Assembly (NCBI GenBank): GCA_938045545.1
Contig: CALIBN010000008.1
Coordinates: forward strand, 42,631 to 106,630
Length of the DNA: 64,000 nt
From: an uncultured archaeon
GTDB taxonomy: Archaea; Thermoproteota; EX4484-205; JAAOZP01
Reading direction: 5' to 3'
Position 1 is the stretch's first letter; every line of letters starts with the position of its first letter. This document shows, one piece after another, positions 19,583-58,977 of this stretch. A model generated the notes under the pieces. It ran no database searches. It was not told the DNA's origin and saw only the letters and a list, made by a program, of their open reading frames with translations. Both the position numbers and the translations under genes were made by a program.

Positions 19583-20983
19583 TTAGACGATAGCTTCCCC
19601 CCTTTCGGTTAGGGAATAATACTCTCTCTTCCTACCCATGATCCTCTTGGCCTCCACTCTTTTAACATACCCTTTTTCAACGAGATCGGAAAGATGCTGG
19701 TAAACCGTTGGAATCCTCACGTTCATGCCGTATTTCTCCCTCAACCCTCTCCAAACTTCGTAGCCGTACATGTTTTTTTCAGACAGCAGCCTCAGGATGG
19801 CTGTCTTAGTAGAACCAAGTCTAACACCTCCGCTCAACTCCTCTATCAACACGCCTAGGCTAGACTTACTGTAGGCTATTTCCTTCATAACCCTAGGATC
19901 CTTGAGGCCGCTTCCAGTTACGACGCAAACCACTTTGGCGTCTCTCCTCACCTCTCCGCTTTCAACCAGCTTCATCAAGCCTGCTAGAGGAAGGCTTCCA
20001 GCCGGTTCTGCAAGTATCCCTTCTTTCTCAGCCAGTAGGCTCAGGGCTTCAAATATCTCTTTTTCGCTGACGGATACTGCTAGCCCATCCGTCTGTCTTA
20101 TTGCTCTGAGGGCAGCGTTTCCGAACCTGGGATTGGCCACGTTCAGGTCGAATATTCTGCTTCTCGGCTCGGCTTCAGCCTCGACAGCATCGAAGCCTTT
20201 TTCAAAAGCCCTCACTATAGGCTTACAGTCCTCCGTCTGGACTCCGACTATTCCTACGCTGCCCCCAGCGACGCCAAGCTCCCTCAGCTCTCTCATCATT
20301 TTATAGGTTGCGTAGACGAGGCCTCCCTCCCCCATTGGGAGGACCACGTAGTCAAGTGGGCTCCCACTGAGCTGCAGGAGTATTTCAAGCATGATTGTTT
20401 TCTTAGCCTCGTTTATCAACGGGTCGTGCTCCGCCGCGACGATAGTTCCCCTTGAGGCGCGTTTCCCGAAGGAGTTGACTACGCTAACCTCCGCACCATA
20501 TATTATCATCTGGTAAAGTTTCCCAACGTCTATCGTGGGCTTAACCTGAACATGCGTCTTTAAACCGGCTTTAGAGGAGTATGCTGCCAGCGATGCGCCA
20601 AGGTTCCCGGTTGAATAGGTGGAGATCCTTCCGTAACCTAGACTTAGGGCAACCGACACGAATAAGGCTGAGCTCCTGTCCAAGTATGAGCCCGTTGGTT
20701 CAACGGTCTCATCCTTAATCCATAGCTCTTCAACACCTATGCTTCTCCCGATTCTTAAGCCGTGTTGGAGCATTGTGTATCCCTCTCCTAAGGAGACTCT
20801 GAACTTTTTCTCAACAGCCGGAAGTATTCCGCTGTGCCTCCAGATTCCGTGCTCTCCCGGCTCCTCTAAAAAGGATGGTTTCATCTCCAGCGTTAATCCC
20901 TGTCCACACTTTTCACACAGCTTTCTTTCAACGCTGAAACTGTAGGCTGCCCCGCAGCTCGTGCATCTGAGAGCATGATTCAA
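19583..20983 (-). CDS. Threonine-synthase-like PALP-fold protein lacking the PLP lysine, fused to a PadR-type wHTH
   Basis: Zn ribbon CxxC..CxxC, SLGEGYT, EPTGSYLDR (canonical NPTGSFKDR), STGN, TGSGLKD; C-terminal MYGYEVW...TVYQHLSDL...RKREYYSLTERG. Confidence 0.85.
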   Translation of the reverse strand: MNHALRCTSCGAAYSFSVERKLCEKCGQGLTLEMKPSFLEEPGEHGIWRHSGILPAVEKKFRVSLGEGYTMLQHGLRIGRSIGVEELWIKDETVEPTGSYLDRSSALFVSVALSLGYGRISTYSTGNLGASLAAYSSKAGLKTHVQVKPTIDVGKLYQMIIYGAEVSVVNSFGKRASRGTIVAAEHDPLINEAKKTIMLEILLQLSGSPLDYVVLPMGEGGLVYATYKMMRELRELGVAGGSVGIVGVQTEDCKPIVRAFEKGFDAVEAEAEPRSRIFDLNVANPRFGNAALRAIRQTDGLAVSVSEKEIFEALSLLAEKEGILAEPAGSLPLAGLMKLVESGEVRRDAKVVCVVTGSGLKDPRVMKEIAYSKSSLGVLIEELSGGVRLGSTKTAILRLLSEKNMYGYEVWRGLREKYGMNVRIPTVYQHLSDLVEKGYVKRVEAKRIMGRKREYYSLTERGEAIV

Positions 20984-23782: not shown

Positions 23783-23987
23783 AGGCTCCCCCGAAGTGTT
23801 GAGGCGGTGTGGATTTAAGGTTTACGGTGGAAACTAAAACTGTTTTACAGAATTAAAAAACTCTTTCTAAGCAGGGCCAATGCTTTACACAGGATTACGT
23901 CTCCAAATGTTCTTCGACGCTCGGTGAACCTCGCATCGGCCTAAGCATCAGGTTTATATATCTTATTGTTGTCATAATCCTGCCACT

Positions 23988-25244
23988 ATGAATTCCTCAG
24001 AAATATTTGAAGCTGCTTCTAAAAGCCGACTTTTAAAAGATCCCTACGTGGAAAAAATATGGAGTTTGATGAATGATGAAAGCCTTTTCTCAAAGTCTCC
24101 GGATTATCTCAGTAAATTGAGGAAGAGCCTTTTTAGAGACGCGTTAAACTATTTTTCAAGACATAGTGATTATTACCGTGAGCTTTTCGAGAGGCTTGAA
24201 GTAAACCCCAGGGATGCTGAGCTTGAGGATTTAGCTAAGCTTGCAGTCCCATCCGATATTCTGAGGGGGGAAGGCCATAAGCAGTTTCTGATCAAAGACG
24301 TGGAGGAGAATGGAGAGTATTTCATGTCAAGCGGCACTACCAATCCTAATCCTGTAAAGGTCTATAGGAGCCCTCTCGACTTGGCGATCATGATAAAGGG
24401 CAATACTTTTCTTTTCGAATACGTCTACGGGAAGGAGGTTGAAAGCGAGAAGGGGATCGCGCTTTTCATGGCTGCCCCGGAGCTCAGATACAGGCTTAAC
24501 TTCGTTGCTTTCGTGCATCTTACTTTAGAATCGAAGAAAATCCCTCTTCTCTACGGTATGAACCTGGTTGAAGGAACTACGGATGGTAAGCCTTGGCAGA
24601 AACTCGTCCCCAACCAGGAGAATGTTCTCCGTTTCCTGAGAAGCAGGGAAGAGCCGAAGCTCCTTTTCACCGCACCCGCCGGCGTCTATTTGCTGTCTAA
24701 AAAGTTTGAGGATATGAACATTGTTCAACGGCTACTCTATAGGCTGATTAAAATCCTCCCGATAAACCTTGGAAAGGGTGGTGTAGTTGTAACAGGAGGT
24801 GGGACCAAGGGTTTTGACCTGCCGCCCTACGATAAGATTGTAGAGTTCTCAAGGAAATATTTTGTTTCACGCGGGCATGATGGGAGTGCTCAGGCTGTTC
24901 CATTCATGGATGTTTACGGGATGACTGAAACATTAACCGCTATGCTGGACAAGTTTGGAGAAATGGATAAGATACCGCACCCGCTTTCAGAAGTTTTCAT
25001 TCTGAACCCTAAAACCTTCGAGTTAGCCAGAGGGGAGAATGCTGAGGGTGTTGTCGGAATATTTAATCCTTTCACGACATCTTGGCTTGAAATATTTTAT
25101 CCTGGAGACATTATGCGCAGCCATCCTTCCAACAGGTATTACGGGAGGGAGTATGTTTACGTGAGGAGGCTGAGCGTAGACGAGGGCTGGAGTCTTCAGA
25201 GGGCGTGCGGCGGAACCCTTGAGGAACTAATGGGTAGAGGCTAG
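23988..25244 (+). CDS. LuxE-like acyl-protein synthetase
   Basis: ANL motifs MSSGTT, TGGG.KG, DVYGMTE, GD; C-terminal RACG corresponding to the LuxE acylated Cys. Confidence 0.8.
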   Translation: MNSSEIFEAASKSRLLKDPYVEKIWSLMNDESLFSKSPDYLSKLRKSLFRDALNYFSRHSDYYRELFERLEVNPRDAELEDLAKLAVPSDILRGEGHKQFLIKDVEENGEYFMSSGTTNPNPVKVYRSPLDLAIMIKGNTFLFEYVYGKEVESEKGIALFMAAPELRYRLNFVAFVHLTLESKKIPLLYGMNLVEGTTDGKPWQKLVPNQENVLRFLRSREEPKLLFTAPAGVYLLSKKFEDMNIVQRLLYRLIKILPINLGKGGVVVTGGGTKGFDLPPYDKIVEFSRKYFVSRGHDGSAQAVPFMDVYGMTETLTAMLDKFGEMDKIPHPLSEVFILNPKTFELARGENAEGVVGIFNPFTTSWLEIFYPGDIMRSHPSNRYYGREYVYVRRLSVDEGWSLQRACGGTLEELMGRG

Positions 25245-26705
25245 TTGAACATCATGCTTGAGCTTAAGCCTTTTTGCAGCCACAGGCATACTGTTGTGGA
25301 GAAAACGCAGAATCGCTACAGAATCCTGGAGATCAGCAGTGGAAGCATGAGGGAGATCATTAACATGTCTCCAGCGATTCAGGAAAGGCTTTCGAGCATA
25401 GGGATTCAGGAAAGGCTTGGAGTAATTGGTGAGATTGGTAAAATTTGGAGGGAGAAGCTCAACGATGGCAAGCTTGAAGAGTTGAAAAAAACTATCGCTA
25501 GAACAACAGGGTACAGTGAGAAGCTTATAGAAATGGAGTTCTCCCTAATCCCTATGGTTTTAAGCAAGGAAAGCCTTTGTGAAAACCTCGCGTGCTCCCC
25601 AGCCGGAAGTATTCTTGCGTTTGAAAGGTTCGTCGAGATAAAGAACGGCGAGAGCTTTAGAATTGCTCCAGCCGGGCCGGTGTTCATCATAAGCTCGGGG
25701 AACTCGCTTCTCCCAGCAATAATTCCTTCAACAATATCCCTCGCAACCGGCAACCTAACTATAGTAAAACCCTCGCTTTCAAACTACTTGGGGGTTGTTG
25801 AAACATATGGAGCTTTATCGGAAATCGCTTCAAACTGCGAGGAGGCGGGAACCCTTAGGGACGCGCTTGTCATAAGCTACTTTACGCATGATAGTGCCTC
25901 CCTAAAATACCTTCTTAGCGAGGCTGAACTCGGCGTGGTGAACTTTTGGGGTGGTGAGCCGGCTAGAACCAGTGTTGCGAGAATGGTTTCGGAAAATCCT
26001 CATCGACCTAAACTTGTTGTGAATGGGCCTTTAACTGGATGTGCCCTTATAGATGAAAAGTCCGCTGACGAGAAAACGGCTGAAGGCTTAGCTAGAAACA
26101 TTATCCTCTATGATCAACAGCTATGCAGTTCCCCAACCTCAGGGTTTTTCATCGGCTCCTGGCAGAACGCTCTTTCCTTCGCCAGTATGGTTGAAAGGTT
26201 TCTGAACGAAATTGGTTCAGATTTCGATTCTGACTTCGACGATGCCAGTATTTTTCTAACACAGTCTGCTAGAAAGGTCTTCCAGTTGAAAGGCTCGCAC
26301 GTACTATCTTCGAAAAACCCTAGGAATTTTTGGACTCTGGCAGTGTCAAAGGAGAAAAGGGTTCTGGACGAGGTGGTCAATTCTCTTCCAGCCTTCAACA
26401 TCTATGCTCGCAGAAGATTCTTGGAACTGGTGGTTGTAGGCTCCGTTGAAGAAGCATTGGAGCACGTTAGGAAGATTCCCGGATCACCCGCCTTCAAAGA
26501 CGTTGATGGTGTTCAAACAATCGGGTACTCTATGAGCATGGATGAAAAGGTTCTTGAAAAGCTTGTTTCCCTTAGAGTATTCAGGGTTGTGCCGTTAAGC
26601 GACATGTTCATGAGGAGTCCCATTGAGCCCTACGACGGCGTCCCCATGCTCTCCGCGTTTACAAAAATAGTTTACCATAGGGATTTACAGCTGTTCAAGC
26701 CATGA
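25245..26705 (+). CDS. LuxC-like acyl-CoA/acyl-protein reductase
   Basis: ALDH-superfamily SSGN, GN..IVKPS, FWGGE, YDQQLCSSP catalytic Cys, C-terminal PYDG..L. Confidence 0.85.
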   Translation: MNIMLELKPFCSHRHTVVEKTQNRYRILEISSGSMREIINMSPAIQERLSSIGIQERLGVIGEIGKIWREKLNDGKLEELKKTIARTTGYSEKLIEMEFSLIPMVLSKESLCENLACSPAGSILAFERFVEIKNGESFRIAPAGPVFIISSGNSLLPAIIPSTISLATGNLTIVKPSLSNYLGVVETYGALSEIASNCEEAGTLRDALVISYFTHDSASLKYLLSEAELGVVNFWGGEPARTSVARMVSENPHRPKLVVNGPLTGCALIDEKSADEKTAEGLARNIILYDQQLCSSPTSGFFIGSWQNALSFASMVERFLNEIGSDFDSDFDDASIFLTQSARKVFQLKGSHVLSSKNPRNFWTLAVSKEKRVLDEVVNSLPAFNIYARRRFLELVVVGSVEEALEHVRKIPGSPAFKDVDGVQTIGYSMSMDEKVLEKLVSLRVFRVVPLSDMFMRSPIEPYDGVPMLSAFTKIVYHRDLQLFKP

Positions 26706-27697
26706 AGATACTCGTAACCGGCGCGTCTGGCTTTCTAGGCGGCCATCTGGTTGAGGAAATGGTTTCAAAGGGGTTTAGTGTAATCGGCATGGTTCGGAAA
26801 AGCAGTGACACGAGTCTCCTTAGAAGCATAGGTGTGGATCTGAGGATTGGGGATCTGACTGATCCTGAAAGCCTAAGCCGGGTTACTGAGAACATTGATA
26901 TCGTCATACATCTTGCCGCATACTACACTTTCTTCGGGAAGAAAGAGATGTACAGGAGGATTAACGTGGAGGGAACTAGGCTTCTTCTAGAAGCGGCTTT
27001 AAGAAACGGTGTGAAAAGATTCGTATACTGCAGCTCTACTGAGGCCATAGGTCCTGTTAAGAGCCCGCCGGCTGAGGAAGATTCCCCACCGAACCCTTCC
27101 TACGAGTACGGAAGGTCTAAACTCGAGGCTGAAAAAATAGTTAGGAGTTACGGTGAGAAAGGTGTCGAATACACGATCCTCAGACCATCCGGAATATATG
27201 GTCCAAGGAATGTTGACGACATATCCTACTGGTTTATCACTGCTTTCGCTAGAAACGCTCTCCCAACGAGGATTATAGTCGGAGACGGGAGGAACCTTAT
27301 ACAATTCGCGTATGTGAAGGATGTGGTTCAGGGTTTCCTCTTGGTTTTGGATAAGCCTGACATATCTAGAAACCAGACGTATTTCATAAGCGAGGACAAG
27401 GCATACACCTATCTGGAGGTCTATGAAATATTGTCTGAGCTCTGCAACAGGGCTCCTCCTAGGATTCATGTTCCCCCTGTTCTTGCAAAGACGTTTGTGG
27501 CTCCGGTGGAATTTTTAAACAGGCTAAGGGGGAGAACTGTTTTCACTTGGAAAACCAGTACTGTGAACGATCTGACGTGTGACAGGGCATACAGCATCAT
27601 GAAAGCGGTGAGGGAGCTAGGGTTTAAGCCAAAATACGATCTTAGGACTGGCTTACGGGAGACCTTGGAATGGTACAGGGAGAACGGCTATATCTGA
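26702..27697 (+). CDS. Extended SDR (NAD-dependent epimerase/dehydratase, 3-beta-HSD/OleD-like)
   Basis: TGASGFLG, HLAA, SS, YGRSK; ATGA overlap with the upstream gene. Confidence 0.9.
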   Translation: MKILVTGASGFLGGHLVEEMVSKGFSVIGMVRKSSDTSLLRSIGVDLRIGDLTDPESLSRVTENIDIVIHLAAYYTFFGKKEMYRRINVEGTRLLLEAALRNGVKRFVYCSSTEAIGPVKSPPAEEDSPPNPSYEYGRSKLEAEKIVRSYGEKGVEYTILRPSGIYGPRNVDDISYWFITAFARNALPTRIIVGDGRNLIQFAYVKDVVQGFLLVLDKPDISRNQTYFISEDKAYTYLEVYEILSELCNRAPPRIHVPPVLAKTFVAPVEFLNRLRGRTVFTWKTSTVNDLTCDRAYSIMKAVRELGFKPKYDLRTGLRETLEWYRENGYI

Positions 27698-43023: not shown

Positions 43024-44480
43024 TTATCCTGCTAAATTCTTGGCTGCCTTCGCTTCTATCTCTGAAAGCCGGTTGATAACCTGCTTGTCAATAACCGACT
43101 CCGGAGGATAATGCTCTCTAATAATCCTTTCTAAGACAGCCTGTGACCTCTTAAGCAGGTCTAGACATCCTTTCTTCTTCCATCCTATCCAGTCATCCCT
43201 GTTGAAAAGGCTCGGATACCAAAGTTCCTCCCGCATTTTCCTCAAAGTATGCTGCTCCTTAAGGAAGCTGCCTCCACCCCGATTCTTTTTATTACTTCAA
43301 GCGCTAAAGTCTCCTGATTTACTTCAAACACTTTAAGTATACGGTTAACATAGTTGAACCACTCGTTATCGATTACAAGCTGTTCAAGGCTCGCGCCTTG
43401 ATCTGCTCCCACTATCCCCTGTTGACCTATGCCCTCCGCCCCCGCTGCCAATACCAGAGCACTACTCGCCGCCTTCTCAAAGCCGGCTTGAAAGTCTGGA
43501 GTGTTTGAATCAGTCAGGGCCACATTGGCGAAGCAGCTTAAACCAAGCTCCCTAGCCACCTGGATTCCCGCTAGGGATGCTAACGTGTTCTCGGGCGCTC
43601 CGAAGGAGCATATGGCAGTCCTCTGGTCTAAAACGTGTATTGACGTTGAGAAGCCAACGGGAGAGTCTGGATTGATGAGATTGACTAAAACTATGCCTGC
43701 CAGAACCTCGGCTGCATGCAGGCTTAACGCGCCAGCTATTGTCACAGGCGCAGTACCCCCAAGGAGGCTCATGGAGCCTGACGCGCTTATGGAAAGCCCA
43801 TACTCCGTCATCTCCATCAGAATCTCTATAGCGTGACGCGAAAGCTGAAGCGGACTCGTAGGCTCAGCTCCATAGCCGACTAACTTTTTTCTCCTCAGCT
43901 CATCCTCTCCCCCAGCCACAGCCTTAGCCATGTCCAGAATATACTTGCAGGATTCAACTGAGTATATCCAGGCGTAAAACGGTTTACGCGAATATGTGAA
44001 GAGGAGCCTATGCTCCCTCACATCCGCCATCCTCACGGGCACGTCGCTGGGCACGACGAAAGGGGATACAACACCTACGTTTCCAAGCTCGTTGCCGACG
44101 GTTATGGATTTCACGCAGTCTTCAGTCCTACCTGGGCGAAGCTCCATCTTACCATAATCTACGAATTGAATCTCCAACCTCATGGTGGCCTTTATGCTCT
44201 CGTCTCAAAAGCATACAGCATCACCCTGCGGAGGCTCAACAATATACTGCTTAGGAGCCTTTTTAAGACAATCTAGGACAAGTCCTCTGGGAAGCTTTGC
44301 AACCTCCCTACTATAGTCTACAATCGCCCCATGCTCCTCAAGGATCTTGAGAGCACCTTTATGTCTGTACGCGAAACCAGCCCCTTCCAGTATTTTCAGC
44401 GTGTTCTCCTTTATTGCTTCAACACCTTCTCTGGGAAGCAGCTCCAGCCTCCTGTTAAAAGCGAGCCTCATTCTTTCTCC
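43024..44480 (-). pseudogene. Non-pyrrolysine MttB-family methyltransferase pseudogene
   Basis: SPLQL, TAPVTIAG, GAPE, TDSNTPDFQAGFEK; in-frame TGA at 44205-44207 and a 1-nt frameshift near 43275. Confidence 0.88.
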
Positions 44481-44568
44481 ACAGGCTGATTTAGCATTCA
44501 ATATCAATACTTATATGCCTTCTTAAAGGAGGCAGACTTTTTCCTCCAATGTTAAATTTTAAGCATGC

Positions 44569-45801
44569 TCAAAAATATTTCTCCGCGACCTCAGAGGCTA
44601 TTCTCGCCCAGTCCCAGAGGCGTTGAGGCTGATATCTAACAGTGCTGATATCCTTCATATGGATCTCCACCACGCAGTTAAACATCTTGGCTTTACTAAG
44701 CTTCTCCTCCAGATCCCGACGAACCGCCTCAGGCTGCCAGGTTGATTCAGCCAGTACAGCGGGATTAGGCTTCCAGGCGAATATGAAGTCACCCCTCACG
44801 TTTTCAACAGCCTTGTCGAAATCGATGAACGGGCTCATCGAGATCCTTCGCAGCCTGGGAATATTCCTCCTCAATACTTCAACCTTATTGTGGAGCGGCT
44901 CGCAGCACCCGTAGTAGTTCAACCCCCATTTCTCATACCAGCGCTTCTCATGCTTCAACGCGAACTCTTCATGCATAGCCGGGGACACGGCTGAGAAGGC
45001 TTGGGCTGCTCCAACCCCCCAAAGCCTCATGGTGGAGTCGCGCAGCAATCCGAGCTTCTCATACTGGTCAAGCCTGTGAAGCCACGCCTCAACCATTCTT
45101 TCAACAAGCCTATGCACATATGCTGGCCTGCGATACATGTCTATCAGGATCTCCTTAACCCCGGTCAGCATAACGATCTCGTCCCAGGGGGCGAACCAGA
45201 AGGCGCTGACCCCGCGCTTCTCAACAGGCAGAGTCCCGTCGAAAATTTCGCAAAGCCTCTCGAAATCCTCCTCAGCCTTCTCCGCGTCGAAAAACACTTG
45301 AGGCATTCTTATCTTTTCAATATCTTCTTCAGACTTGATTTGAACGTGATAGCGGTGGGAAACCACAGGGTTCTTCTCATCAGTCCTAACAATATCCTCC
45401 TTGACACGAATACCTATACCAGTGTCGGTAACATAATCCTGAAGCGGCTGTTCGACAACCGGTTCTAGACTCAGACTGCTGGTGAAACGGGGATCGTCCA
45501 CCAGCACCCCTAAGCCGTGTCTCCACTTGTAGATCAAACGTCTAAGCCTCTCCTCATATCTCTTGCATAACGGGTGCCTAGTTTTCAGCGTTAGCTCATC
45601 GTCAACATTCATCTCATGCCAAGGAATCTCGTAAACATAGATCGGAGGCTTCACCATCTCCAGATTAATTGCTCTTCTCTGAAGTTCAAAATACTCCTCG
45701 TTAAGGGGTGAGGCTGCGATTTCAACTATCTGCCTTCCAAGCTCTCGAAGAACCTCTTTATCCTCGCGAGGTATTCCGCTGCAAGCCATATGTTTCCCCA
45801 A
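44569..45801 (-). CDS. UroD/MtaA-superfamily TIM-barrel protein
   Basis: VSPAMHEEF, YYGCCEPLH, ISMSPF, WKPNP motifs. Confidence 0.7.
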   Translation of the reverse strand: MGKHMACSGIPREDKEVLRELGRQIVEIAASPLNEEYFELQRRAINLEMVKPPIYVYEIPWHEMNVDDELTLKTRHPLCKRYEERLRRLIYKWRHGLGVLVDDPRFTSSLSLEPVVEQPLQDYVTDTGIGIRVKEDIVRTDEKNPVVSHRYHVQIKSEEDIEKIRMPQVFFDAEKAEEDFERLCEIFDGTLPVEKRGVSAFWFAPWDEIVMLTGVKEILIDMYRRPAYVHRLVERMVEAWLHRLDQYEKLGLLRDSTMRLWGVGAAQAFSAVSPAMHEEFALKHEKRWYEKWGLNYYGCCEPLHNKVEVLRRNIPRLRRISMSPFIDFDKAVENVRGDFIFAWKPNPAVLAESTWQPEAVRRDLEEKLSKAKMFNCVVEIHMKDISTVRYQPQRLWDWARIASEVAEKYF

Positions 45802-50654: not shown

Positions 50655-51686
50655 TCAAATGCTTCTTTGATAGATCTCTGGGTTCAACAGATGCAATGGT
50701 TTATCTCCATCTAGGAACCTGAATATGTCCTCGACGATTAAATTCGACTGCCGTTCTACAGTCTCCCGAGTATTCCCCCCAATATGGGGTGTCACGATAG
50801 CGTTGTCCAACTCTAGGAACGGGTTTGACGAGTCGACCGGTTCATTCTCCTGCACGTCTAAAGCTGCGCCCGCTATCCTGCCTTGTCTAAGGGCCTCTAG
50901 AAGAGCCTGGTCGTCAACCGTACCAGGGGACGATGTATTGATTATGACTGCTGACGGCTTCATCATGGATATCTCCTCCTTCCCAATGATATGATAAGTC
51001 TCATCCGTGAGCCTTACGTGAAGTGTAATAATATCGGATTGTCTAACTAGCTCGTTCAGGGTAACCCTCTTCCCGCCGACTGAGAGTATCTTATCGTCGG
51101 AAACATAGGGATCATAGACCAGTATCGAAGCCCCGAAAGATAATAGGATTTTTGCGACCCTGGTCCCTATGTCTCCCAAACCTATTATCCCCACCTTCTT
51201 TCCATGTATCTCTCCACCTTCCAGAGCGTTGTAAACATCTTGAAAATCTCTATCCGTCTCATAGCTTACACCCCTCGTGAACATGCGCTGAGCGTAAACC
51301 AGTTTCCGCAACAGCGCCACCATAAGGCCTATTGTCAATTCAGCCACAGCCTGCGAGTTTCTCCCGGGCGCGTGTACAACGGGTATCCCCTTCGCGGTAG
51401 CAGCAGCTACGTCAACCGCGTAGGGAGTCCCCCTGCACGCCCCTATAAACCTAAGGTTCGTCCCTTCTATAACGTCAGCCGTCACTTGGTCCGCTTCCAC
51501 CACGAGTATTTCAACCTTGTTCTCATTAATCTTATCAGCAAGTTCGTCTCCAAAGTAAATGCGCCCAGTTTTCCTCCAGTCTTCATATATGACGTCGGCT
51601 CGTTGCGAGAGCCTTGCTAGAGCTTCTTTAGTGAAGGTCGCAGTTATCAAGCATCTCGGCCTTCCAACAGTTTGTTGTACTGCCAT
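50655..51686 (-). CDS. D-isomer-specific 2-hydroxyacid dehydrogenase
   Basis: PGRN..AVAE, GIIGLG.IG, YDPY, INTS, ALDV..EP, TPHIGG. Confidence 0.92.
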   Translation of the reverse strand: MAVQQTVGRPRCLITATFTKEALARLSQRADVIYEDWRKTGRIYFGDELADKINENKVEILVVEADQVTADVIEGTNLRFIGACRGTPYAVDVAAATAKGIPVVHAPGRNSQAVAELTIGLMVALLRKLVYAQRMFTRGVSYETDRDFQDVYNALEGGEIHGKKVGIIGLGDIGTRVAKILLSFGASILVYDPYVSDDKILSVGGKRVTLNELVRQSDIITLHVRLTDETYHIIGKEEISMMKPSAVIINTSSPGTVDDQALLEALRQGRIAGAALDVQENEPVDSSNPFLELDNAIVTPHIGGNTRETVERQSNLIVEDIFRFLDGDKPLHLLNPEIYQRSI

Positions 51687-51692
51687 CGGTCT

Positions 51693-53177
51693 TCACTCCT
51701 TAGAGTAGGGGAGCCACCACATCCTTCTAGGTTCCCTTATCTTGTTTATGCATATTTGCCTAATGTTCACCATCTCTAAAAGCCCGTATCTGGAGGAGTG
51801 TCTTCCAAGCCCGCTTCGCTTCACTCCTCCCCAGGGCGCGTGCGGAAACGTCACAGCCACATCGTTTATCCAGACTATTCCAGACTCTATTCTTCTAGAA
51901 AGCCTTATCGCCCTATCTTCATTCTCAGTCCAGATCGAAGCCCCTAGGCCGTATTCAGTAGCATTAGCGATCTCAACGGCTTGCTTTTCATCGTGAAAAG
52001 GCATCACGGGTGCAACCGGTCCAAAAATCTCCTCGCTCATGACCTTCATCGAAAGGTTCACATCGGTGAGCACCGTGGGACTATAGAAGAATCCCTTCTT
52101 AAATTCTTTTGGAGCTGAGCCGCCGCACATGATTCGAGCACCTGCCAATATGGCCTGCCTCACAGAACGCGACACATACGATTGTTGCTCTCTGCTTATC
52201 AAAGGCCCAATGTCAGTTGAAGGATCAAAACCGTTTCCAACCTTCAGGGACGAGGCTTTTTCTACGAATTGTTTCAAGAAATCATTAAAAACATTCTCGT
52301 GAACTAATATCCTCTTAGCTGAGACACATATTTGGCCTGCTCCGAAAAACCTGCCGTACAAGGCTCCGTTAACTGCTTCATCCAAGTTTGCATCATCCAA
52401 CACTATGAAGGGATCGCTTCCTCCGAGCTCTAAGATGGTTTTCTTCAAGCCCTTCGCACAATTCAAAGCAACCTGGGCCCCGGCCTTATTGCCACCTGTA
52501 AATACTACTGCTTGGACATCAGACTTTACTAGCATTTCTCCAATCCTCCCTCCGCCTTGCACCATGTTAAACACACCTTTCGGTAGCCCTGCTTCCTCGA
52601 ACAGCTCAGCAATCTTCTCGCCTACCATAGCGGTTAGGGAGGAGGGCTTGAAAATCACGGAGTTCCCAGCCACCATCGCAGGGATGATCGTTTGAATCGG
52701 AATTAGAAAAGGCCAGTTCCAAGGGGATATGACTACTACGACGCCAAGCGGCTCAAACACTATTCGGAACTCATAGTTTCCAGCTTGAGGGAAATCCATA
52801 ATCCTGGTTTCTTCCCTCAGCATTTGCTCAGCCTCAGCCACATAATAGTCAACATACATTTGAGCCCCTGTAACTTCCATGCTGGATTCTACCAAGGGCT
52901 TACCATTTTCTAAAGTTATGACGCTTGAAATCTCGTCGAGCTTATCCATCATCAGTTGTCCAACCTTCTTCAGCAGCTCAACTCTTTCTCCTATGGTCAT
53001 AGTGCTCCATTGATGGAAGGCCCTCTTCGATGATTCAAGAGCAATTCTTAAATCGGGCATTCGCGCGCTCGCCACCTCATGTATTACTTCTTCCGTGGCA
53101 GGGTTTAATTTCGGGATTTTTACACCAGTGGGCGTTATCCATTTTCCATCGATGAACGAACGAACTATATTCAACAC
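51693..53177 (-). CDS. NAD(P)-dependent aldehyde dehydrogenase
   Basis: PWNWP, FTGG, LELGG, GQICVS, EEIFGP; true start about 53177. Confidence 0.93.
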   Translation of the reverse strand: MLNIVRSFIDGKWITPTGVKIPKLNPATEEVIHEVASARMPDLRIALESSKRAFHQWSTMTIGERVELLKKVGQLMMDKLDEISSVITLENGKPLVESSMEVTGAQMYVDYYVAEAEQMLREETRIMDFPQAGNYEFRIVFEPLGVVVVISPWNWPFLIPIQTIIPAMVAGNSVIFKPSSLTAMVGEKIAELFEEAGLPKGVFNMVQGGGRIGEMLVKSDVQAVVFTGGNKAGAQVALNCAKGLKKTILELGGSDPFIVLDDANLDEAVNGALYGRFFGAGQICVSAKRILVHENVFNDFLKQFVEKASSLKVGNGFDPSTDIGPLISREQQSYVSRSVRQAILAGARIMCGGSAPKEFKKGFFYSPTVLTDVNLSMKVMSEEIFGPVAPVMPFHDEKQAVEIANATEYGLGASIWTENEDRAIRLSRRIESGIVWINDVAVTFPHAPWGGVKRSGLGRHSSRYGLLEMVNIRQICINKIREPRRMWWLPYSKE

Positions 53178-53253
53178 GTTAAAAGAACAATTATGATATT
53201 TAAGCTTTAGCGCGATAAAAAAAGTTAAATATCGGAAAAAAGAATGTGAAAGT

Positions 53254-53589
53254 ATGCCGACGAAGGAGCAGGTGTTTGAGTCCCTCGATGAAATAAGGAA
53301 GAGGTTTGAAGACCCGAGTGTCAAGGAGAAGTTTAAAGGTTTTAAGAGGGAGATATGGTTCAAGTTTCCAGACTTGAATGTAGAATACGTTCTGAGCGTC
53401 AATGAAGATGCTGTTGCAACCCTTAGGGAGGGTGCTGTCGAAAAGCCGGATGTGACGGTGGAAATGGACAGCACGACTTTCCTAGGCGTAAGAAGTAAGA
53501 AGATAAGTGCGACACAGGCCTACATGTCTGGAAAGCTTAAAGTTAAAGGCGCCATGCCCGACCTTTTAAAGCTCCAAAAACTCCTGTGA
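53254..53589 (+). CDS. SCP2 sterol/lipid-binding domain protein
   Basis: PDVTVEM, AYMSGKLKVKG...L.KL signature; divergent from the ALDH gene. Confidence 0.9.
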   Translation: MPTKEQVFESLDEIRKRFEDPSVKEKFKGFKREIWFKFPDLNVEYVLSVNEDAVATLREGAVEKPDVTVEMDSTTFLGVRSKKISATQAYMSGKLKVKGAMPDLLKLQKLL

Positions 53590-53593
53590 CGCT

Positions 53594-54238
53594 TTACAAC
53601 ATCATCGTCCTGAAGAGTTCCCGCCCCACTTCAACCGCCCATTCAGGAAGGTTCTTAGGCGACCCAATGGCCTTGGCTAGCAAATATACCGTTGAAGCCT
53701 TCTCGAGAAGCAACGCTTTATGAAAAGCATCCTGAAGATCCTTGCCGCATACAACAGCACCATGGTTTGCGAGCAAAACAGCATTCCTCTGAGTCAGACT
53801 GCTGGCGACGTTAGACGCCAACTCCTCGGTTCCAGCCATCGCATATTCGATTGTCGGAACATTCTCTCCAAGATAAGGAATTAGTTCCTCTAGAAATGGG
53901 GGTATTGTCTCGTGAAGCGAGGCAAGCGCTGTAGCGTGTAAAGAGTGGAAGTGTATCACTGCCCTTGCATCAGGCCTTTTAGAGTATATAAGGAGATGCA
54001 TCTTAGTTTCAACCGACGGATTCCTTTTACCCTGAACTACCTCGCCAACCTCATTCACAACTAGAATGTCGCTGGCCTTTATTTTGTAGCGAGGAACTTG
54101 GCTGGGGGTAATGGAATACCTGTTAGCGACGCGTGTTCTAGCACTCACGTTACCCTCATAATCCAACACGTACCCTATCTTATAAAGGGTCCTTATTGTC
54201 CGCGCGACTTTCTCCCTCACCGATTTAAAAGAATTCAT
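53594..54238 (-). CDS. Class II aldolase/adducin family (FucA-like)
   Basis: GNVS, ITPS, PSVE..MH, HFHS, LANHG. Confidence 0.9.
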   Translation of the reverse strand: MNSFKSVREKVARTIRTLYKIGYVLDYEGNVSARTRVANRYSITPSQVPRYKIKASDILVVNEVGEVVQGKRNPSVETKMHLLIYSKRPDARAVIHFHSLHATALASLHETIPPFLEELIPYLGENVPTIEYAMAGTEELASNVASSLTQRNAVLLANHGAVVCGKDLQDAFHKALLLEKASTVYLLAKAIGSPKNLPEWAVEVGRELFRTMML

Positions 54239-54240
54239 TT

Positions 54241-55737
54241 TCAAGCAATGCTTCTCAACCTCTCGTATATAAGTTTCCACCTCCAATAATTAGACTGGTA
54301 GTCTTCGTAACAAGACGTCGGATTCACGGTCTTTAACTCAACCATTCTCTCAACAATGCTCCTTGGATCCTCAGATCTTAGAAAAGACCAGCATGCGACA
54401 GACGCCCCCACAGCACTCGCCCTCGGCTCAAAGGGAGTTGCAACAGGCGTCGCCAACACATCCGCCAGTATCTGGATGAGGAGGCTGCTGTTCGTCAGCC
54501 CTCCTGAGGCAATTATGGGCGTAAGGATGCTGGGAAAGACTTCCCTAGCCTGATCCAGGTTGCCCCTACACGCGAATGCTATGTTCTCATAACATGCCCT
54601 CGCTATATCACTGGCCTTTGGCTTCTCCCCGATGAACAATGAGGGAAGTATTACGGCTGCGGGGGGCACTTCCATAAGCCTCCTAGCATCCATTATCGAA
54701 GGGCCTAAGAATGCCAGTGTATTCCTGCTTCCGCAGGGGGCTGATCCAGCCAGCTTATCGAAACGCGCGTAGTCAACACTGTCCCCCTTTCTAATCATAA
54801 GCACGTCGTAGGCAAGCCAGTCGAAGATGTTTCCACAAACGCCCAAGTTACTCTCCAGAATCCAGAGTCCATCCAGCGGAAAGCATCCTGTCCACATTCT
54901 CTTCTCCTTGTCAATACGCGGCTCTGACATTATGACGTGCAATGGTGCTGTTGAACCCATCGAGATATATGCCTGGCCGTTCGAGAGAGCCATCGACCCG
55001 ATGCCTGAACACTGTGTATCTCCTGCAGCCATTACAACAGGGGTCCCGGAGGATATTCCTGTCGCTTTTTGGAATTCCTCGGTCGGATAGCCAACCAGCT
55101 GGCCAAACTTAACGATCTCAGGCAGTTGTCCAAGTTCCACGCCCGCAATCCTGCACATCTCCTCGCTCCATCTCCGTCGACGTATGTCGAACAAATAGGT
55201 TCCTGCAGCCTGCGACGGTTCTTCAGCAGGCTTACCCGTAAGCATGAAAATCATCCAGCCGTCTATCGTCGTGAAGAACCTGGATAAGCTGAATGCCTCT
55301 GGATCGTTTTCGATGAGCCATCTTATCCTACTTCCCGAGAAAAGGAACGAGGGGTGAAGCCCAGTGATCTGATGTGCTTCCTCGCTCACCGAATTGGTGA
55401 AGACGTTCTCCACCTCGGCGCCCCTCGCATCCATGTTTGGGCAAAGCATCAACGTCCTTCCGTCTCGCCCTATGACTGCTGTTGAAAACCTTTGCCCAGT
55501 CATCGTAACTGCTGAAACACCTCCTGTTTTCAGTCGTCTCACACACTCCGCCGCTGTGCTGCAAACCGAGGACCACAGCTTCTGGGGGTCCAGTTCCACT
55601 ATATACGGGCGGTCGGGAAAAGGCAGCTTCTTTTCCAAGGGGTGGGTGGAGGAGCTCACTATTCTTCCTGACTCGGATACTAGTCGAGAATGAACTGCAC
55701 GCGTAGTTAGCTCTATTACTAGAACATGTTCCTCCAT
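54241..55737 (-). CDS. FGGY-family carbohydrate kinase
   Basis: TGQR, DAR, GDTQC, SGG, ADV motifs; N-terminal IELTT replaces canonical IDxGT. Confidence 0.88.
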   Translation of the reverse strand: MEEHVLVIELTTRAVHSRLVSESGRIVSSSTHPLEKKLPFPDRPYIVELDPQKLWSSVCSTAAECVRRLKTGGVSAVTMTGQRFSTAVIGRDGRTLMLCPNMDARGAEVENVFTNSVSEEAHQITGLHPSFLFSGSRIRWLIENDPEAFSLSRFFTTIDGWMIFMLTGKPAEEPSQAAGTYLFDIRRRRWSEEMCRIAGVELGQLPEIVKFGQLVGYPTEEFQKATGISSGTPVVMAAGDTQCSGIGSMALSNGQAYISMGSTAPLHVIMSEPRIDKEKRMWTGCFPLDGLWILESNLGVCGNIFDWLAYDVLMIRKGDSVDYARFDKLAGSAPCGSRNTLAFLGPSIMDARRLMEVPPAAVILPSLFIGEKPKASDIARACYENIAFACRGNLDQAREVFPSILTPIIASGGLTNSSLLIQILADVLATPVATPFEPRASAVGASVACWSFLRSEDPRSIVERMVELKTVNPTSCYEDYQSNYWRWKLIYERLRSIA

Positions 55738-57860: not shown

Positions 57861-58047
57861 TAACCAGCATAATATAGATGTGATTCACCGGCTGCAAATA
57901 ATTCGGTGCGCACGCATAACACTATGCTAACAGCATGGATGCTGAATAATACTTCGACTACCATTCTCTCCAAAGCATAAACTGGCCATACATATTTTTT
58001 TAAGCAAGTAACGATGGTCAGCTTTATATAACGCGCGTTAATCTCTA

Positions 58048-58977
58048 ATGATAATGATGGAAGGTTTAAAATATGAAAGGCCTCCTTCCCAACCACCTTA
58101 TAAATGGCTGAGTATCGCGATACTTCTTTTTGTTTCAGGCATAGTCTCCGGATTAGTCTTTGGTTACTGGGTGAGTGGCGAACAGATAGGTTTTCTTCGG
58201 AATGAAGTCACGAACCTGCAGTATAACAACGCTCAGCTGCAATACCGGATAACGCAGCTAAAAACATCCTACGACTCGCTTCTAGCATCGTATGATTCAC
58301 TTAATACACAGTATCAGAAGCTTCAAGAAAAATACAGGTTTTCGCCAACAATCCCATACGCCCTCATCTGCAACGGAACGATACAATGGTTATTCAAGGA
58401 TATGAGGGGAAACATCTTGAAATGGCAGATTCCAATCGATACGTACAGGGCATACGTGAAAAGGGAGAAAAGCAAAGACTATGTAAAACTATCCTTCAAA
58501 AACGGTACTACTGTAAAAGTTCTAGACATGAGAAACTACATCGAGCCAAAATTCTTCTCCAGTGTTATACTCGAGTTGACACGTGGCCGAACAGATGAGG
58601 AATTCGTACGGGAAGTGGATAACGTTAAGAATCAGATAGTTGTCTATGGAACCGGTCTTGGAGACCATTACAGGTGGCCTGTCGAAACACTGGTTGAAGG
58701 CAGAGGACAATGTGGAGATACTACTATTTTAATGGCAAGCATGATAATCGAGGGAAACCACCTGATGAACTACGGTATGAAAATCTACATATGGTTCGTC
58801 GATGCAGAGCACATCTCAGACCCTATCAATGTAAACCACGCTTTGATCGAGGTTGAATTTAAGAGCGGAAACAGGTGGATAATAGAGACGACGGCTAATT
58901 ACTTCTACAATTATCTTGAACATCAATCGGTCTCCGGCTGGAAATATGACGTGACCTATCAAGGCTTAGGAAATTAG
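58048..58977 (+). CDS. Membrane-anchored coiled-coil protein with transglutaminase-like domain
   Basis: N-terminal TM, heptad coil, ETLVEGRGQCGD (Cys), NHA (His), IETT. Confidence 0.78.
   Translation: MIMMEGLKYERPPSQPPYKWLSIAILLFVSGIVSGLVFGYWVSGEQIGFLRNEVTNLQYNNAQLQYRITQLKTSYDSLLASYDSLNTQYQKLQEKYRFSPTIPYALICNGTIQWLFKDMRGNILKWQIPIDTYRAYVKREKSKDYVKLSFKNGTTVKVLDMRNYIEPKFFSSVILELTRGRTDEEFVREVDNVKNQIVVYGTGLGDHYRWPVETLVEGRGQCGDTTILMASMIIEGNHLMNYGMKIYIWFVDAEHISDPINVNHALIEVEFKSGNRWIIETTANYFYNYLEHQSVSGWKYDVTYQGLGN

Follow-up and report, generated by a model that had tools for sequence, protein, structure and literature searches.

A conserved LuxE-LuxC-SDR cassette without luciferase in anaerobic archaea, proposed to reduce a carboxylic acid

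What would an archaeon in whose genome no luciferase was found do with genes resembling those of the fatty acid reductase of light-emitting bacteria? The question is raised by positions 23988-27697 of a 64,000-nt stretch of contig CALIBN010000008.1 (hereafter the window), which belongs to the 2.03-Mb, 51-contig, 92%-complete genome of a hot-spring archaeon (G000). [quoted passage not shown] Homology, architecture and synteny together support the view that the three proteins form a conserved archaeal unit without luciferase. By analogy with the LuxC-LuxE system, we believe that the cassette probably, though by no means certainly, reduces a carboxylic acid through an acyl-enzyme relay that would need neither coenzyme A (CoA) nor a carrier protein, after which the SDR would form the alcohol. 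The features are as follows.

23953-23960, + strand: TATA-box-like octamer TTTATATA, read from the sequence, 27 nt 5' of the first ATG; putative sole promoter of the cassette
23988-25244, + strand: 418 aa, predicted LuxE-like acyl-protein synthetase in which a PaaK-like adenylating N-domain is followed only by a C-terminal tail with Cys407
25245-26705, + strand: predicted LuxC-like acyl-thioester reductase, 486 aa from TTG 25245 or 483 aa from ATG 25254, with Cys294 in YDQQLC
26702-27697, + strand: extended SDR, 331 aa (Pfam Epimerase); predicted NADPH-dependent aldehyde reductase

The LuxE-like synthetase and its LuxC-like partner

LuxE is defined, in the sections of Tian et al., 2022 (PMC9157457) on which we draw, by the lack of a C-subdomain, a catalytic lysine in a GGGWK loop, Arg354/355 and an acylated Cys364 on a short C-terminal tail. 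The adenylation motifs and the RACG cysteine originally claimed for the first gene product are present, and in an alignment of 21 diverse homologues (profile A1) the motifs SSGTT (114-118), GGGTKG (270-275), GMTE (311-314), RR (393-394) and QRACGG (404-409) are invariant, so that K274, R393, R394 and C407 are identical in every sequence. When A1 was aligned by hhalign with P0170, a bona fide LuxE-family protein (144 bits with PF04443), the match had a probability of 98.3 (E 2.5e-14) over 336 columns; it paired GGGTKG with the GGGWK of P0170 and extended to the start of the C-terminal tail, the C-terminal Cys of P0170 itself sitting just beyond the aligned stretch. Distant relatives, one marine and one from the bacterium Pseudonocardia sediminis, end in ...REGCG(G), and a feature search of the ESM Atlas returned LuxE-family archaeal clusters at 0.97, which we treat as a lead only.

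The predicted fold of this protein is nearest to that of PaaK-type ligases. Its AlphaFold2 (AF2) model (predicted local distance difference test score, pLDDT, 86.2; predicted template-modelling score, pTM, 0.87) was matched best by such ligases in Foldseek (E 1e-12); it aligned with PaaK1 by VIA-align over 315 residues (Z 26.6, root-mean-square deviation 2.9, model 30-398 against chain 7-330); and in a wide fold search the PaaK clade scored Z 21-26, against at most 15.7 for other adenylating enzymes. The best matches were PaaK1, BT_0428 and 2-hydroxyisobutyryl-CoA ligase, and the LuxE chain of 7XC6, the LuxC-LuxE structure from Photobacterium phosphoreum, was absent among the matches listed in all three fold searches. 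These folds, the Joint Genome Institute (JGI) name 'phenylacetate-CoA ligase' borne by several homologues, and the use of acyl-CoA by LuxC itself, as stated in part of the text of Tian et al. (PMC9157457), favour a reading in which a PaaK-type acyl-CoA ligase and a CoA-acylating aldehyde dehydrogenase (ALDH) would act on free acyl-CoA, with no acyl-enzyme relay, and the SDR would make the alcohol.

We hold that reading to be very unlikely. A better match to PaaK-type CoA ligases had been named at the outset as something that would speak against a LuxE-type enzyme, and PaaK is the best fold; however, this agreement is superficial, as the match covers the N-domain only (PaaK1 7-330). Nothing aligns beyond PaaK1 residue 330, and the archaeal protein ends about 20 residues past the equivalent position. 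The C-subdomain, bearer of the PaaK catalytic lysine, is missing; nor is there an invariant Lys among the 20 C-terminal residues, unlike what a PaaK-type ligase requires. The invariant lysine lies in a LuxE-type GGGxK loop and is accompanied by the invariant tail Cys, which is retained in the linker between the two domains of an 884-aa natural LuxE-LuxC fusion (P0131). Homology, architecture and synteny thus support a LuxE-type acyl-protein synthetase as the product of the first gene.

The second gene product scores 85.7 bits with the Pfam LuxC family (PF05893) against a cut-off of 21. Its sole sequence match in the PDB by phmmer is 7xc6_A (2.7e-12), with YDQQLC (289-294) lying over the catalytic YDQQAC, and all of the 15 LuxC-like sequences aligned keep this motif unchanged as YDQQLC. 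The same chain is the top Foldseek match of the AF2 model (pLDDT 90.5), with E 5e-21 and template-modelling (TM) scores of 0.79/0.80, so that the LuxC-like protein with YDQQLC put forward in the original prediction is borne out by both sequence and fold. Ordinary ALDHs do not match better, as might have been feared: they make up nearly all of the other listed chains and score TM 0.59-0.70 against 0.79 for 7xc6_A. On the grounds of homology, architecture and synteny, assignment of the second gene product as a LuxC-type reductase is supported.

Conservation and layout of the three-gene unit

The family is isolated and the order of its genes is kept. A search with the LuxE-like profile of 1.84 billion representative sequences gave only 71 matches at E<=0.001 and 44 at 1e-10. 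The best 120 of 187 word-index matches are 56-91% identical, and every source name among them that bears an organism is archaeal; the nearest named relative (locus L034) is a metagenome-assembled genome (MAG) of Candidatus Brockarchaeota whose first protein is 99% identical. For synteny we assembled 80 loci from species-representative genomes, 71 of them with >=2600 nt downstream, and the order LuxE-LuxC-SDR is present in 64 of the 71, contrary to the concern that the triplet might not be conserved. In five of the seven exceptions (L027, L046, L048, L049 and L076) LuxE has no adjoining LuxC; the genomes of L046 and L048 carry an adjacent LuxC-SDR pair elsewhere, and at L083 and L084 the SDR remains with LuxC though LuxE is elsewhere. 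At L027, L049 and L076 the LuxE-like gene is followed by glutaredoxin and FTR-rubredoxin genes, and L076 sits on a long branch (0.62) of the LuxE tree.

No neighbour beyond the trio was common across lineages among the loci compared. Glutaredoxin and FTR-rubredoxin (Methanomethylicia) were rejected as partners, as were UbiA and radical SAM proteins (Methanomassiliicoccales; 16 and 12 loci), each being a lineage-specific neighbour only. ComB, considered as a fourth gene, was likewise discarded: it adjoins the trio only in Brockarchaeota-like loci (8/80), stays when the trio is absent, and has a TATA-like element of its own, TTTATCTT, about 30 nt 5' of its ATG.

The distribution of the trio is patchy. 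Of 401 genomes sampled from the phylum, 39 yielded a LuxE-like gene, as did 10 of 16 other genomes of the genus and, in the order to which a Methanomassiliicoccus MAG belongs, 40 of 201. Carriers that have been cultured include Zestosphaera tikiterensis NZ3 and Methanosuratincola LWZ-6/LCB70. Within the genus, three congeners without the trio (G124, G052 and G132) keep the flanking genes in the same order, with only 89-237 nt at the trio site. The kept flanks are, before the site, a glycoside hydrolase family 18 (GH18) gene, cut at the contig end in G132, a signal-peptidase-like gene (o22256) and two small ORFs (o22825 and o23462), and, after it, ComB, o28445 and an IF-2B-family gene (o28866). 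Since the congeners keep the flanks and lack exactly three genes, the trio is a discrete cassette. Alignment of the empty sites revealed neither flanking repeats nor remnants that would tell gain from loss; the trio is an accessory cassette that arrives or disappears whole and has a scattered occurrence among anaerobic lineages of archaea. A LuxE tree built by a quick method groups by lineage, with Odinarchaeia and an Archaeoglobales MAG nested among hot-spring Thermoproteota; its between-group branches are short (0.04-0.16) and its stem is long (0.94), a pattern that would be compatible with transfer among co-habitants, though not proof of it.

The third gene product has the motifs, the length (331 aa) and the Pfam match (Epimerase, 175 bits; 3Beta_HSD and NAD_binding_4 also match) expected of the extended SDR that had been proposed. 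Invariant in 14 SDR sequences are G7xxG10xxG13 (TGxxGxxG), R32, S111 and Y136xxxK140. As a general rule among SDRs, an arginine after strand 2, here R32, confers a preference for NADP(H), and judging by this invariant residue the enzyme is probably NADPH-dependent. Its best PDB sequence match is 3WJ7, which we take to be Gox2253, and its best NCBIfam matches are HpnA, OleD and SdmB, all far under their cut-offs.

These resemblances raise the possibility that the aldehyde is the end product and that the SDR carries out other chemistry on the same molecule, before or after acid reduction, by keto reduction, by an oxidation/decarboxylation of the 3-beta-hydroxysteroid dehydrogenase type or by epimerisation. 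OleD is a 3-oxo reductase, SdmB serves sterol C-4 demethylation, and nucleotide-sugar enzymes are also similar; moreover, a distant marine clade has LuxE-LuxC without the SDR, as do two archaeal loci. We nevertheless think this alternative unlikely, given that the SDR lies directly after LuxC in 64/71 loci and stays with LuxC at L083 and L084, that a zinc-dependent alcohol dehydrogenase, which fits aldehyde reduction, adjoins the pair in a bacterial-type contig (L121), and that every NCBIfam score of the SDR is too far under its cut-off to assign a specific function. We retain the aldehyde as the presumed substrate of the SDR.

Within the window, the details of the gene junctions bear on how the three genes might be expressed. 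The second and third genes overlap by ATGA (...aag cca TGA over ATG aag), as originally described. Translational coupling across a gap of 0 bp between the first and second genes, which was claimed as well, is uncertain: the LuxE stop codon TAG occupies 25242-25244 and a TTG in the same frame follows directly at 25245, while the ATG at 25254, from which the protein would begin MLELKP, gives a better fit to the N-termini of homologues. The gap is thus 0 or 9 bp according to the start chosen, and 0 bp holds only if the LuxC-like gene starts at TTG 25245. A single in-frame TAG separates the two genes in this genus (25242-25247 here), leaving an otherwise open frame of 907-933 aa in 10 genus genomes including G000. 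Read-through of this codon in the manner of pyrrolysine, which would give a LuxE-LuxC fusion, was considered and rejected, because PylS reached only 28.6 bits against a cut-off of 178 and PylD was not found in the genome.

The window holds three copies of the octamer TTTATATA, where chance would give 1.63, and three were reached in 22 of 100 shuffles; its count alone is not significant, and we infer from its location that it fits the archaeal promoter of a near-leaderless mRNA. A second copy is similarly placed at 58023-58030, 18 nt 5' of the ATG of a same-strand ORF at 58048. Base composition is uniform across the window, and a search of it for Rfam families brought up nothing. Two runs labelled metatranscriptomic contain contigs from relatives that are about 90% alike, of which one bridges LuxE/LuxC (23837-25663) and one LuxC/SDR (25931-27082); these runs are flagged 'probably DNA', and we conclude nothing on transcription from them.

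The proposed relay and its substrate

[quoted passage not shown] First, the acid and ATP would form an acyl-AMP on the LuxE-like enzyme, with Lys274 of the GGGTKG loop as the catalytic residue together with Arg393/394. The enzyme would then transfer the acyl group to its own Cys407, on a flexible C-terminal tail of 20 residues, and this tail would swing to the LuxC-like partner and hand the acyl group to Cys294. The resulting thioester would be reduced by NADPH to the free aldehyde. Finally, the NADPH-type extended SDR would turn the aldehyde into the alcohol. A predicted LuxE-LuxC complex lends this pairing weak support: its ipSAE is 0.60 against 0.00 for the best control, although in calibration the mark was reached at 0.60 or under by only 7 of 80 solved complexes and by both of the two mismatched pairs that passed. 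The runs share at least 66% of contacts and the pLDDT of the partners is at least 83. As a like complex (7XC6) is already solved, the passing prediction may reflect likeness only.

A number of observations weigh against the proposed relay. The profile search put forward in the original prediction gave a clear result for LuxC; for LuxE, in contrast, it returned 24.9 bits with PF04443, exactly at the gathering cut-off of 24.9, and a six-frame search of the genome with PF04443 (E<=0.001) missed the gene altogether. Such a score is marginal, and a precomputed PF04443 match was present in only 2 of the 120 homologues listed. Searched against the PDB sequences, profile A1 found nothing at E<=0.01, not even the LuxE of 7XC6, and chance matches only up to E 10. 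By sequence alone the case for placing the protein in the LuxE family is marginal, and it is homology and architecture that make it clearer. On the LuxC side, the NCBIfam equivalog model NF052251 gives 59.2 bits against a cut-off of 750; the LuxC-like protein is a distant member of the family and not an equivalog of the enzyme of luminous bacteria. At the level of the locus, an SDR is missing within 7 kb at L012 and L031, the other two of the seven exceptions, and in the Methanomethylicia-type genomes of L027, L049 and L076 (G001, G003 and G004) a search with the window's protein as query brought up no LuxC; the lone LuxE there may reflect decay or a different partner. The part of the SDR as aldehyde reductase is proposed solely from its position after LuxC and its family resemblance. 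In the literature searched we found no paper on archaeal LuxE or LuxC.

If the relay operates, its substrate would be expected to be a specific biosynthetic or salvage metabolite and not a bulk fatty acid. Activation at the cost of ATP to AMP is expensive for an anaerobe, and conservation of the synthetase across phyla is unusually high (56-99% identity). The original prediction had named fatty alcohol or alkyl lipid synthesis and lipid scavenging, beside a small metabolite; on the lipid version, the substrate would be a long-chain fatty acid and the product a fatty aldehyde or alcohol. Several points speak for this version: the only characterised relatives, LuxC and LuxE, use myristic acid according to the portions of the literature consulted, and the SDR resembles the lipid-related OleD and HpnA and the NAD_binding_4 domain of fatty acyl reductases. 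Genes for acyl carrier protein (ACP) and AcpS are also present in the genome, and within the genus AcpS occurs in 8 of 11 genomes that bear the trio and in none of the six that lack it, a weak count given that these are close kin. As first noted, luxAB, luxD and an ACP gene are absent from the window; a search of the whole genome, 92% complete, turned up neither the luciferase family PF00296 nor the LuxD family PF02273, whereas the ACP gene lies elsewhere in it.

That ACP gene (PP-binding, 47 bits) is part of a bacterial-looking operon on contig C15 (L141, 8593-12758, - strand), together with genes for phosphotransacetylase, acetate kinase, a nucleotidyl-transferase/hexapeptide protein and holo-ACP synthase. 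ACP with AcpS is unusual in archaea.

On the evidence as a whole, a bulk fatty-acid or alkyl-lipid role is distinctly unlikely and has no evidence of its own. Neither an acyl-CoA dehydrogenase nor LuxD was found in the genome, 92% complete, and only one AMP-binding ligase was found; the Brockarchaeota paper, in the portion relevant here, likewise reports genomes without enzymes of the beta-oxidation type, and the terms 'fatty acid', 'lipid' and 'phenylacetate' were not found in its main text. No lipid gene is conserved as a neighbour outside single lineages, and the closest folds to the synthetase use small aryl or branched acids. In addition, positions aligned to the distal hydrophobic cleft of LuxC (M114 and S118 in the numbering of the paper) are variable and often polar in archaea, albeit in an alignment of low identity. 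The suggestion that SCP2 and ALDH genes at 51.7-53.6 kb might handle the same substrates also fell away: at E<=1e-5 nothing matched an SCP2 domain, and the ALDH (518 bits) is in a sugar-type operon. This operon (50655-55737, - strand) encodes an FGGY kinase, a class II aldolase, the ALDH, possibly extended N-terminally by about 110 aa from a GTG, and a D-2-hydroxyacid dehydrogenase; it looks like deoxy-sugar catabolism unrelated to the trio.

Distant relatives in the sea and in bacteria offer leads, and leads only, on what else such pairs might do. In 46 metagenome loci of a clade that shares 28-30% identity with the archaeal family, an overlapping LuxC-like gene is seen in 23 and the archaeal SDR in none. 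In 4 of the 14 marine loci with >=900 nt downstream, a proteorhodopsin gene lies directly after LuxE-LuxC, the four representing two lineages, as two of them do not differ and a further one is 96% alike. The proteorhodopsin-type gene (Bac_rhodopsin, 157 bits) is on the same strand, at 10883-11572 in L099, 10841-11539 in L107 and L109 and 10846-11544 in L110; upstream of the marine pair is a NUDIX gene or a 139-aa ORF. On metagenome contig L121 (2487-8569), a sulfatase and a Stf0 sulfotransferase gene are followed by LuxE-like and LuxC-like genes and by the convergent alcohol dehydrogenase gene mentioned above, a set suggestive of a route from acid through alcohol to sulfate ester in an organism resembling a bacterium. 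A bolder idea, which we regard as a decidedly long shot, is that the cassette is a mobile plug-in, free of CoA and carrier, that would convert a lipid-type acid, isoprenoid or fatty, to an aldehyde or alcohol for building or salvage of membranes or cofactors, which would be a class of reaction undescribed in archaea; the marine pairs could then turn an acid into the matching aldehyde, retinal for example.

Known systems and wider meaning

How does the cassette, with the reductive relay that we favour, compare with known systems? The closest likeness is to LuxC-LuxE of P. phosphoreum (7XC6), which, in the sections of PMC9157457 used here, shares with it the two-enzyme relay (inferred in the archaeal case), a synthetase without the C-subdomain of ANL enzymes and a reductase of ALDH fold. 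The GGGxK lysine, the Arg pair, the Cys on a short C-terminal tail, the YDQQxC motif and the adjacency of the genes are also alike. In contrast, the archaeal reductase is only 18% identical to 7xc6_A and the archaeal synthetase has no sequence match in the PDB; the archaeal cassette is without luxAB, luxD and luxG, has an SDR attached, resides in anaerobic archaeal hosts and shows no sign of myristate. By structure, the synthetase comes nearest to members of the PaaK family (PaaK1, 2Y27; BT_0428, 4R1L; HCL, 6HE0; NatL2; ClxA) at Z 23-27, which have a similar adenylating N-domain, SSGTT and GxTE. They differ in possessing a C-subdomain, roughly 100 residues long, that carries the catalytic lysine, and in releasing acyl-CoA or an amide, whereas the archaeal protein has its Cys tail.

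The overall chemistry, in which an acid is converted with ATP and NADPH to an aldehyde and then to an alcohol, is also that of carboxylic acid reductases (CAR, of A-PCP-R architecture) working with aldehyde reductases. CAR relies on a phosphopantetheinyl arm and an SDR-type R domain, in place of which we propose the synthetase's own cysteine tail and an ALDH-fold reductase. Non-luminous LuxC/LuxE pairs, serving some end other than light, are found in bacterial flagellin-glycosylation islands (Aeromonas, Enterobacteriaceae), as far as the parts of PMC7874193 and PMC4875605 drawn on here describe them. The islands occur in bacteria and are linked with glycan genes; no such genes lie beside the archaeal trio.

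Two further observations concern genes elsewhere in the window. At 43242-44570 (- strand), an MttB-like trimethylamine methyltransferase gene is broken by an in-frame TGA near 44205-44207; the codon is not TAG and hence not a pyrrolysine codon, and a pseudogene, an assembly error or recoding could account for it. At 19583-20983 (- strand), an ORF of 466 aa joins a domain dependent on pyridoxal phosphate (PALP) to a C-terminal regulator domain of the PadR type.

The relay of LuxC and LuxE is known only from light-emitting bacteria and has been regarded as a rare reaction. To the description of the locus this analysis adds the presence/absence polymorphism within the genus, the natural fusion, a fold consisting of the N-domain only, the size of the family and its marine and bacterial-type relatives. 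If a conserved counterpart in archaea, equipped with an aldehyde reductase of its own, is real, the chemistry would be old and widespread, and methanogens, Asgard archaea, Brockarchaeota and other anaerobes would possess an unsuspected metabolite pathway. It would also offer thermostable enzymes for the conversion of carboxylates to alcohols with no need of CoA or phosphopantetheine.

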